A stretch of DNA of 34,165 nt from the NCBI GenBank assembly GCA_020431745.1, contig JAGQHR010000001.1:1-34165 (forward strand). Direction: 5' to 3'. A program made the translations under genes and the position numbers. The DNA is from Candidatus Eiseniibacteriota bacterium (GTDB lineage: Bacteria; Eisenbacteria; RBG-16-71-46; CAIMUX01). Below, piece after piece: positions 1,007 to 1,885 of this stretch (its first letter is position 1; each line of letters starts with the position of its first letter). The notes beneath the pieces were generated by a model, which worked only from the letters and a program-made list of their open reading frames with translations, was not told the DNA's origin and did not search any database.

Positions 1007-1703
1007 CCTCTACACCGTAGCGTTGCAGTTCCAATCGATCCAACGCGTTCGCGTGGCGCTGCAACTGTCCTGCGAAGGGAGGCCCGAACAAGCCCCAACG
1101 TTCATCCGGGACAAGATGATGGAGATCGAAAAGGATGTCGTTAAATACATGGCAGACCAAGCGAAGATGTTCTCCGTCTGGCCTTGGCTGTCAGACATCA
1201 AGGGCATTGGCCCGCGCATCGGCGGGATGCTCCTTGGCCTAATCGACATTCGCAGAGCCAATACGCCGTCCGCGTTGTGGAGGTACGCCGGGCTCGGCAC
1301 TTCTCCGTGGTGTGTCGAATGCAATACGCGACTCAGTGACCGCGAGACGGTATGCCCGAAATGCGGCACGGCTGCCATCCACAAAGCAGACAGGCCGATC
1401 AAGGGTGAGAAGCTACGCTACAACGCCAAGCTCAAGAAAACCTGCTTTCTGGTAGCGCGGCAGTTCATCATGGCTGGCACCGAGCCATACACCGGGATCT
1501 ACAGGGAGAAGAAGGCGCACTATCTGGGGCGTGGGATGACTGCTGGCAATGCCGACCTTGCTGCGCGTCGAGTGGCTGTGAAGATCTTTCTGGTGCATCT
1601 CTGGGAAGAATGGCGCAAGGCCGAAGGGCTTCCAGTGCGAGATCCCTACGTCAAGACTTACTTGGGACACCAGGACATTATCCCAAGCCGAAATCAGGAA
1701 TAG
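897..1703 (+). CDS. IS110-family transposase C-terminal-domain-like HhH protein with zinc-ribbon insert; no N-terminal DEDD/RuvC-like domain
   Basis: LSDIKGIGPRIGGMLLGLIDIRRANTPSALWRYAGLG resembles the PGIGP...YAGL helix-hairpin-helix core of the IS110/IS116/IS902 C-terminal domain. It is followed by CVEC...CPKC and then RYNAKLKKTCFLVARQFI. Start chosen at ATG 897 (AGGAG 886-890, 6-nt spacer). ATG 735 has no SD and would translate the repeat array. Confidence 0.6.
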   Translation: MTKDEADELERATLSDSTMSPERATNPDLTAFKERTHLYTVALQFQSIQRVRVALQLSCEGRPEQAPTFIRDKMMEIEKDVVKYMADQAKMFSVWPWLSDIKGIGPRIGGMLLGLIDIRRANTPSALWRYAGLGTSPWCVECNTRLSDRETVCPKCGTAAIHKADRPIKGEKLRYNAKLKKTCFLVARQFIMAGTEPYTGIYREKKAHYLGRGMTAGNADLAARRVAVKIFLVHLWEEWRKAEGLPVRDPYVKTYLGHQDIIPSRNQE

Positions 1704-1840
1704 TACCGCCAAGCAAGAGCGAGCCAGCAATCAGGAATAGTACCGCCAAGCAAGAGCGAGCCAGCAATCATGTGATAATGCCCAAGGACAGAGAGCGAGC
1801 CATGAACGCAAATGATAACCATGAGCCATGAGCGAGCCCG
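1684..1840. repeat. Downstream block of the same 36/37-bp repeat family, 4-5 copies
   Basis: Cores at 1684 (degenerate CAAGCCGA), 1720, 1757, 1796 and 1833. 1691-1719 and 1728-1756 match at 28 of 29 nt. The internal GA(A/T)TA..CC box is present in each unit. The stop codon of the HhH gene (1701-1703) lies in the first unit. Confidence 0.85.
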
Positions 1841-1885
1841 TCGCCGCTGATTATCACCGTGGAGCAAGAGCGCTGCGCTGACCGC

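Follow-up and report, generated by a model that had tools for sequence, protein, structure and literature searches.

The 34,165-nt stretch of DNA analysed here (the window; contig JAGQHR010000001.1 of the Candidatus Eiseniibacteriota assembly GCA_020431745.1) carries two blocks of short tandem repeats around a single gene, and we are highly confident that the block at 1681-1876 is the downstream sub-array of a dual-repeat TIGR array, whose upstream part lies at 666-1004 and whose effector is the enclosed gene tasA (897-1703). The published dual-repeat TIGR unit consists of an edge repeat, a spacer A, a loop repeat and a spacer B, with start and end motifs that are common to edge and loop. The arrays are published with a first edge truncated at its 5' end and a last edge truncated at its 3' end, typically followed by a terminator; their position upstream, downstream or on both sides of tas is a published feature of the family (PMC12045711; bioRxiv 10.64898/2026.09.09.750476), and there are documented cases in which the array extends into the ends of the tas open reading frame (ORF). 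Here, all units lie on the tas strand and on both sides of the gene, and the five downstream units (D0-D4) fit the unit definition, with an edge of 9 nt, a spacer A of 9 nt (8 in D0), a loop of 10-12 nt and a spacer B of 9 nt; the first edge of the block is 5'-truncated and the last 3'-truncated. The locus is thus a new, unannotated example of a family described in 2025, and the conception of TIGR-Tas is unchanged by it.

A sequence-only reading of the window had already described one repeat family forming two blocks with a single gene between them, and this description stands: the ATG of the gene (897) lies in upstream unit U6 and its TAG (1701-1703) in the first downstream unit, D0. Within the downstream block the core GCGAGCC recurs on the + strand at 1719, 1756, 1795 and 1832, with spacings of 37, 39 and 37, and is preceded, as that reading had it, by a degenerate copy at about 1684, CCCAAGCC, the end of which is at 1689. 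The clustering of these four cores is not due to chance: within 160 nt, 200 first-order Markov simulations of the window gave no more than three cores on one strand, and three only once. Twelve of the 27 GCGAGCC matches in the window fall inside the two blocks, all twelve on the + strand, and eight of them lie in the upstream block at 706-968. A sequence model built from upstream units U1-U8 alone finds four downstream matches, which are parts of D0-D3 together with their downstream edges (E 0.009-0.08), and reaches D4 at E 3.5; across the whole 34-kb window it finds nothing outside the blocks below E 0.5. Judged by their sequences, the upstream and downstream blocks are one family.

The upstream block comprises nine units (U0-U8). 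Each downstream unit is laid out as an edge GAGCGAGCC (9 nt), a 9-nt spacer A, a loop of the form GA..CC and a 9-nt spacer B, so that the edge reads GA-GCGA-GCC and the loops GA-..-(A/G)CC, except for D3, the loop of which starts with AA. The conserved part of a 36-nt unit is only about 9 plus about 5 nt, and the rest is made up of two variable 9-mers. The downstream units measure 36-39 nt, with loops of 10-12 nt compared with 8-10 nt upstream. The stop codon of tasA falls in the D0 loop, and the nine-codon mini-ORF pointed out earlier (MNANDNHEP, then a stop) does open, at ATG 1802 in D3; spacer A starts with ATG in four units, which gives rise to spurious mini-ORFs. The RNA of the downstream block shows no fold beyond that of shuffled sequences (z = 0.11), which is expected for the dual-repeat type and not for the stem-loop type of TIGR array. 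The stem-loop type was rejected on this ground and also on account of the Y/H loop that TasA retains and the stem-loop clades lack. An Rfam scan of positions 1-6000 returned nothing relevant.

The enclosed gene had been labelled an HhH gene in the earlier reading, but neither this label nor a transposase identity survives, as the protein has no significant Pfam match to HhH or transposase and only a weak one to a zinc ribbon. Instead, TasA scores 141 bits (E 5e-41) against NCBIfam NF052498 (TIGR_Tas_endo, "TIGR-Tas system RNA-guided endonuclease"), for which the curated cutoff is 100, and a phmmer search against the PDB returns TaTasR (9mty, E 1.9e-15) and TasH (21kl) at identities of 18-23%. 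An AlphaFold2 model with 17 homologues as input has a mean pLDDT of 84 and consists of a disordered segment (residues 1-33), a two-helix coiled coil (30-89) and a Nop-type domain; with this model, Foldseek places TasR/TasH complexes first (9mty, 9w04) and the IS621/ISCro4 bridge-RNA recombinases next (ranks 11-22). The 'transposase' label of PHROG 4285, which TasA also matches, reflects the common Nop/IS110 domain and not transposition. The gene callers of public assemblies give an identical 268-aa product from ATG 897. This start codon stands at the junction of the U6 edge and the U6 spacer A, and TasA residues 1-33 are encoded by units U6-U8. No nuclease Pfam match was found in TasA; only residues 1-33 precede the coiled coil, and the alignment with TaTasR begins at TaTasR residue 123. 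Because it has no HNH or RuvC domain, the enclosed protein is, by sequence and predicted structure, of the nuclease-free TasA subtype.

Two features of the protein deserve closer attention. The residues that align with the SpTasH processing dyad are well kept, the Tyr being invariant among the 17 homologues and the His present in most, and it is these Y/H residues of dual-repeat Tas proteins that are missing in stem-loop clades. The second feature is a weakly matched zinc ribbon, which occupies the position of the Tas wedge loop (an alignment gap at TaTasR residues 213-219; the wedge is defined in a preprint as TaTasR G210-K230); about half of the 17 aligned homologues have it and the rest lack it. 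The Nop core of dual-repeat Tas proteins has been described as compact and invariant, and the zinc ribbon may be an unrecorded clade-specific insertion. The coordinates of these features and of the repeat units are collected in Table 1.

Table 1. Units of the two repeat blocks, the enclosed gene and associated sites, in window coordinates
Feature	Position	Strand	Description
U0	666-703	+	Degenerate first upstream unit; edge variant GAGACGAGCC; holds the stop codon of the preceding ORF (276-683)
U1-U8	704-995	+	36-37 nt each; edge (G/A/T)AGCGAGCC, 9-nt spacer A, loop GA(T/C)..A(A/G)CC, 9-11-nt spacer B
Shine-Dalgarno-like AGGAG	885-889	+	End of U5 spacer B and start of U6 edge; 7 nt before ATG 897; presumed role
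tasA	897-1703	+	268 aa; TIGR-associated Nop-domain protein without nuclease domain
Terminal variant edge of upstream block	996-1004	+	GAGCGAACC; inside the tas ORF, codes E-R-T
Zinc ribbon CxxC-N10-CxxC (C139, C142, C153, C156)	1311-1364	+	Pfam Zn_Ribbon_1, E 4e-4, weak
Y251 and H258	1647-1670	+	Aligned to Y289 and H296 of SpTasH, which form the catalytic dyad that processes pre-tigRNA in dual-repeat systems
D0	1681-1716	+	5'-truncated edge AAGCC (1685-1689); 8-nt spacer A GAAATCAG; loop GAATAGTACC; spacer B GCCAAGCAA
D1	1717-1753	+	GAGCGAGCC / AGCAATCAG / GAATAGTACC / GCCAAGCAA
D2	1754-1792	+	GAGCGAGCC / AGCAATCAT / GTGATAATGCC(C) / (C)AAGGACAGA; 39-nt unit, long loop
D3	1793-1829	+	GAGCGAGCC / ATGAACGCA / AATGATAACC / ATGAGCCAT; 9-codon mini-ORF opens in spacer A
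D4	1830-1867	+	GAGCGAGCC / CGTCGCCGC / TGATTATCACC / GTGGAGCAA
Terminal edge closing downstream block	1868-1876	+	3'-truncated, GAGCG|CTGC
Promoter-like TTGCCC-N17-TAGAAT	1886-1914	+	Directly after the terminal edge; only sigma-70-like match in 1-2400

Relatives of the locus link the repeats to tas. In four of them (L009, L011, L012 and L013, with Tas proteins of 41-47% identity) the edge core is the same, AGCGAGCC, in the form (G)AGCGAGCC, and the loop is (G/A)AGTCACCC; a fifth, L008 (Tas identity 53%), has a different edge. The array stands on both sides of tas in L009 and L012, only upstream in L011, where a TnpB gene follows tas, and only downstream in L013. Since the four relatives keep array and tas together amid neighbour genes that differ from one to the next, sequence comparison makes the arrays companions of tas, whatever the neighbouring genes are. 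The L011 locus (3001-5158 of an 84.5-kb phage-like contig) is worth noting in itself, as its tas gene with a 16-unit upstream array is followed directly by a TnpB-type gene (OrfB_IS605 plus Cas12f1-like TNB), which puts two different RNA-guided systems side by side.

Among cultured phages, the only match to TasA in the collection searched is a protein of Microcystis phage Mvi-JY20 with 33% identity over 60% of the query, annotated only as 'hypothetical protein' (PP438412.1, 21367-22425; L057:2234-3300). Its array starts at the tas stop codon and has nine 36-nt units with the edge ATGCGAGCC and the loop ACGAAACCC; at its far end stand a variant edge and a clear terminator, CCCCCTTCACCATAGGGGGTTTTTTT. 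No mention of this phage was found in a literature search. A scan of named genomes for Tas homologues gave a sole, distant match, in a gammaproteobacterial metagenome-assembled genome (MAG).

The same phage has been assembled from several metagenomes, and this allows one to compare copies of the array within a population. The window is contained in two contigs, of 40.6 and 40.9 kb, which appear circularly permuted with respect to it. The permutation is seen at window position 31788 (L010:256), and the phage genome is probably complete at about 40.6-40.9 kb; the window is without about 6.5 kb of it, and the missing part includes a region with a divergent HTH gene (L010 1619-2321). Contig L002 equals the window over its first 4.5 kb, both array blocks included, and L010 differs from the window at four positions, near window 25-34 and outside the arrays. 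Over 816-1998, contig L007 departs from the window only by the exact deletion of 37 nt, which are unit D1. The window, L002 and L010 thus have D1 and L007 does not, and three short contigs end inside the D1 repeat region. The earlier count of 28 matches in 29 nt between 1691-1719 and 1728-1756 is correct, and the recent duplication that it was taken to indicate is borne out, since 1692-1728 and 1729-1765 agree at 37 of 37 positions and the unit is polymorphic among metagenomic copies of the same phage.

The composition of D1 points to the way in which it may have arisen. It is a chimera of the D2 spacer A (AGCAATCA-), the D0 loop and the D0 spacer B, with breakpoints in the AATCA that is common to the spacers A of D0 and D2. 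This pattern fits unequal crossing-over or slippage, and as far as the sequence goes the event may be either a gain or a loss. Half-spacers are also common within loci: in five loci, nine pairs agree at 8 of 9 positions or better compared with none in an A-versus-B control. In L012, the arrays at 2240-2950 and 3903-4400 hold common half-units, with spacer A GTTCCAGCC at 2488 and 4224 and repeated spacers B CAGTAGAAA (2647 and 4297) and GTGGAGGTG (3938 and 4334), and the sharing of these sequences suggests exchange or duplication between upstream and downstream blocks, with recombination inside units. In the window itself, U5 and U6 (851-923) share a near-exact edge, spacer A and loop (ATGCCGAAA-GATAAACC compared with ATGACGAAA-GATGAAGCC) and have unrelated spacers B, which by the same kind of comparison is another half-unit duplication. 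A larger difference is seen at the start of L007 (1-252), where units U0-U3 are replaced by unrelated sequence with the start of a minus-strand ORF resembling a signal peptide. The junction coincides with the first base of the U4 edge, no match to L007:1-252 was found in the MAG and the other loci, and it could be either a structural variant or an assembly chimera at a repeat.

Several results weigh against the assignment to an intact dual-repeat TIGR array. Whereas the canonical unit has a fixed length of 36 nt, the downstream units measure 37-39 nt, their loops (10-12 nt) being longer and more variable, and the spacer A of D0 has only 8 nt, so that some downstream units may be poorly functional. 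No rho-independent terminator is predicted after the downstream block, where 1860-1955 folds no better than shuffled sequences, and no promoter is predicted upstream of the array in 1-2400. The promoter-like site after the terminal edge lies outside the array, upstream of the primase-helicase leader, and probably serves the primase-helicase gene.

The search for targets belongs with these points. The published 8-nt 3' overhang, and not a figure, was the basis for the geometry used, in which a target strand reads spacer A, a gap of 0-2 nt and the reverse complement of spacer B. The opposite arrangement of the spacers served as the decoy; for D1 the target is 5'-AGCAATCAG-TTGCTTGGC-3' and the decoy CTGATTGCT-GCCAAGCAA. 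Within the window the best self-target matches 15 of 18 positions and the best decoy 14, and in the other 9.1 kb of the phage genome (L010) both reach 15. The 4.95-Mb MAG has 11 real matches at 16/18, compared with 13 decoy matches at 16/18 and one at 17/18; these were rejected as host targets and attributed to chance, given that the decoy does no worse. When 100 spacer units from the relatives' loci were compared with phage genomes, no real match reached 16/18 and two decoys did so, and an exact scan of IMG/VR gave 4 and 16 real matches for D1 and D4 as against 8 and 14 for the decoys, which is at chance level. The 108-kb genome of Mvi-JY20 has one real match to its own spacers at 15/18 and no decoy match at 15/18 or above. 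With 18 nt of spacer per unit, true targets are indistinguishable from chance in large databases, and the literature is likewise without an answer as to the natural targets of most TIGR systems.

The irregularities of the downstream block could also mean that it is a decaying remnant, TIGR by descent, in which D2-D4 (and D0) hold no functional guides and the upstream block alone is active. We regard this as unlikely. The drift of unit length away from the 36-37 nt seen upstream, the truncated edge and short spacer A of D0, the weak scores that the upstream-only model gives to the downstream units (above all to D4) and the missing terminator would all agree with decay. They are met by the finding that all four full edges are perfect copies of GAGCGAGCC and that every loop keeps its terminal CC, and by the base-for-base identity of the block in the independent assemblies L002, L006 and L010. 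Duplication or deletion of units, moreover, is still occurring, as L007 demonstrates, and the published TasR structure has no sequence-specific contacts to the interior of the loop, so that variation in loop length may be tolerated.

The sequence-only reading had likened the two blocks to bipartite centromeres and to the two-site logic of ori and crr. In such a case the repeats would be DNA-level protein-binding sites (iterons or a bipartite centromere, compare P4 ori/crr and plasmid parS), bound by a primase-helicase or a partition protein. The direct orientation of the repeats, their spacing of about 3.5 helical turns and the gene for a Prim-Pol/D5 helicase with a Pox_D5 C-terminal domain only 310 nt downstream speak for this possibility, which we nevertheless consider very improbable. 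Most of each unit is variable, in two 9-mers exactly as in TIGR arrays, the enclosed protein is a Tas RNA-binding protein, and the repeats co-occur with tas and not with a primase in six related loci, among them L009, L011, L012, L013 and Mvi-JY20. A separate AT-rich repeat island at 4416-4626, beside the helicase gene and apart from both blocks, is the likelier origin. With a Tas protein between the blocks and arrays that accompany tas despite different neighbour genes, the centromere and iteron comparison is left unsupported, and the further suggestion that the gene had been inserted into a pre-existing array becomes unnecessary, as flanking arrays are a published TIGR feature. Least credible of all is the idea that the periodicity is that of translated low-complexity protein repeats (N- or C-terminal extensions, or peptides such as MNANDNHEP), since in spite of a long ORF (735-1703) that is open through U2-U8 and of gene callers that translate the relatives' arrays as periodic 12-residue repeats (P0003, P0011), the reading frame changes between units, which are 36, 37, 38 or 39 nt long, the downstream block is located after the stop codon, the nucleotide core is conserved in all three frames and the array-encoded residues 1-33 of TasA are disordered in the model.

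Taking the locus as a dual-repeat TIGR-TasA system, one can outline how it would work by analogy with characterised TIGR-Tas systems. The + strand would be transcribed through the upstream array, tas and the downstream array, and a TasA dimer would bind each unit via the box-D-like GA and box-C-like CC that bound the edge and loop repeats. Residues Y251 and H258 would then cut the precursor in mid-edge to give tigRNAs of about 36-39 nt. With each tigRNA as guide, the TasA dimer, itself without a nuclease, is expected to find DNA that on one strand carries spacer A, a gap of 0-2 bp and the reverse complement of spacer B, with the two spacers pairing with opposite DNA strands. The predicted outcome would be binding or occlusion (repression or interference) and no cleavage. 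As an RNA-guided repressor or blocker, TasA would plausibly act on a competing element or on a host gene. The downstream block, for its part, would gain and lose units by unequal crossing-over between neighbouring units, of which D1 would be one product.

The overlap of array and gene suggests a further consequence. Because the Shine-Dalgarno sequence and the ATG lie in the edge and spacer A of U6, and the stop codon in the loop of D0, binding or processing of its own mRNA by TasA would part the ribosome-binding site from the start codon and so limit the synthesis of TasA; a similar general possibility of autoregulation is raised by Xu et al. We speculate that D0, D1 and D2 are a snapshot of guide creation without acquisition machinery, by unequal crossing-over at AATCA, in a system where the maturation of guides cuts the effector mRNA and provides negative feedback; as a whole this combination is an attractive possibility to which we would give somewhat less than an even chance.

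Elsewhere in the window, ARAGORN predicts a tRNA-Gly (GCC) at 9868-9952, inside long + strand ORFs (8981-10213 and 9109-10419).

The natural targets of TIGR-Tas systems, their role and the growth of their arrays are open questions (PMC12045711; bioRxiv 10.64898/2026.09.09.750476). To these the present locus adds a complete TasA system, carried by a phage whose genome (about 40.6-40.9 kb) looks complete and has been assembled independently from several metagenomes, and an array of which one part lies on each side of tas and which runs into both ends of its ORF. It also adds the gain or loss of a unit at the population level, which is direct, if small, evidence that arrays can be altered from within by duplication or deletion. 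A cultured Microcystis phage, in which the biology is testable and which could be a native experimental system, has the edge core GCGAGCC as well.

The closest known system is the dual-repeat TIGR-TasA of Flavonifractor plautii (FpTIGR; Faure et al. 2025, Science, PMC12045711). Like it, the phage-borne locus described here has a nuclease-free Nop-domain Tas, tandem units of about 36 nt with an edge, a 9-nt spacer A, a loop and a 9-nt spacer B, edges and loops that start with GA and end with CC, truncated first and last edges, and an array on the tas strand that flanks the gene. It differs from systems of the FpTIGR type in its unit length of 36-39 nt (loop 10-12 nt), in having no predicted terminator and in the zinc ribbon in the wedge loop of its Tas; both ends of the tas ORF lie in units, which is less frequent for dual-repeat arrays (bioRxiv 10.64898/2026.09.09.750476). 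TaTasR and SpTasH (PDB 9mty; 9w03, 9w04, 21kl) are the best sequence and structure matches and share the coiled coil and the Nop fold, and the Y/H processing dyad of SpTasH is conserved here. The box motifs are GA...CC(R) here compared with UG...CCA for TaTasR and, in contrast to TaTasR and SpTasH, TasA has neither RuvC nor HNH at its N-terminus, so that DNA binding without cleavage is expected. The Mvi-JY20 locus has the same edge core, 36-nt units, a terminal variant edge and a downstream array that begins at the tas stop, but its array is very regular, ends in a textbook terminator and lies downstream only.

More distant parallels are found in the bridge-RNA recombinases of the IS110/IS621 type and in box C/D small nucleolar ribonucleoproteins, which have in common with TasA a Nop-type RNA-binding domain and bipartite guides bounded by box C/D-like motifs. 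Unlike IS110/IS621, the locus has no DEDD/RuvC domain, no catalytic Ser domain and no transposon ends, and an array of many short guides stands where they have a single bridge RNA. CRISPR offers the most familiar comparison, that of a tandem repeat-spacer array beside an effector gene which, by analogy, would be processed into guide RNAs. In place of the CRISPR arrangement, however, each unit here has two alternating short repeats and two 9-nt spacers, there are no cas1 or cas2 genes and no protospacer-adjacent motif, and the guides would pair with both strands of the DNA.

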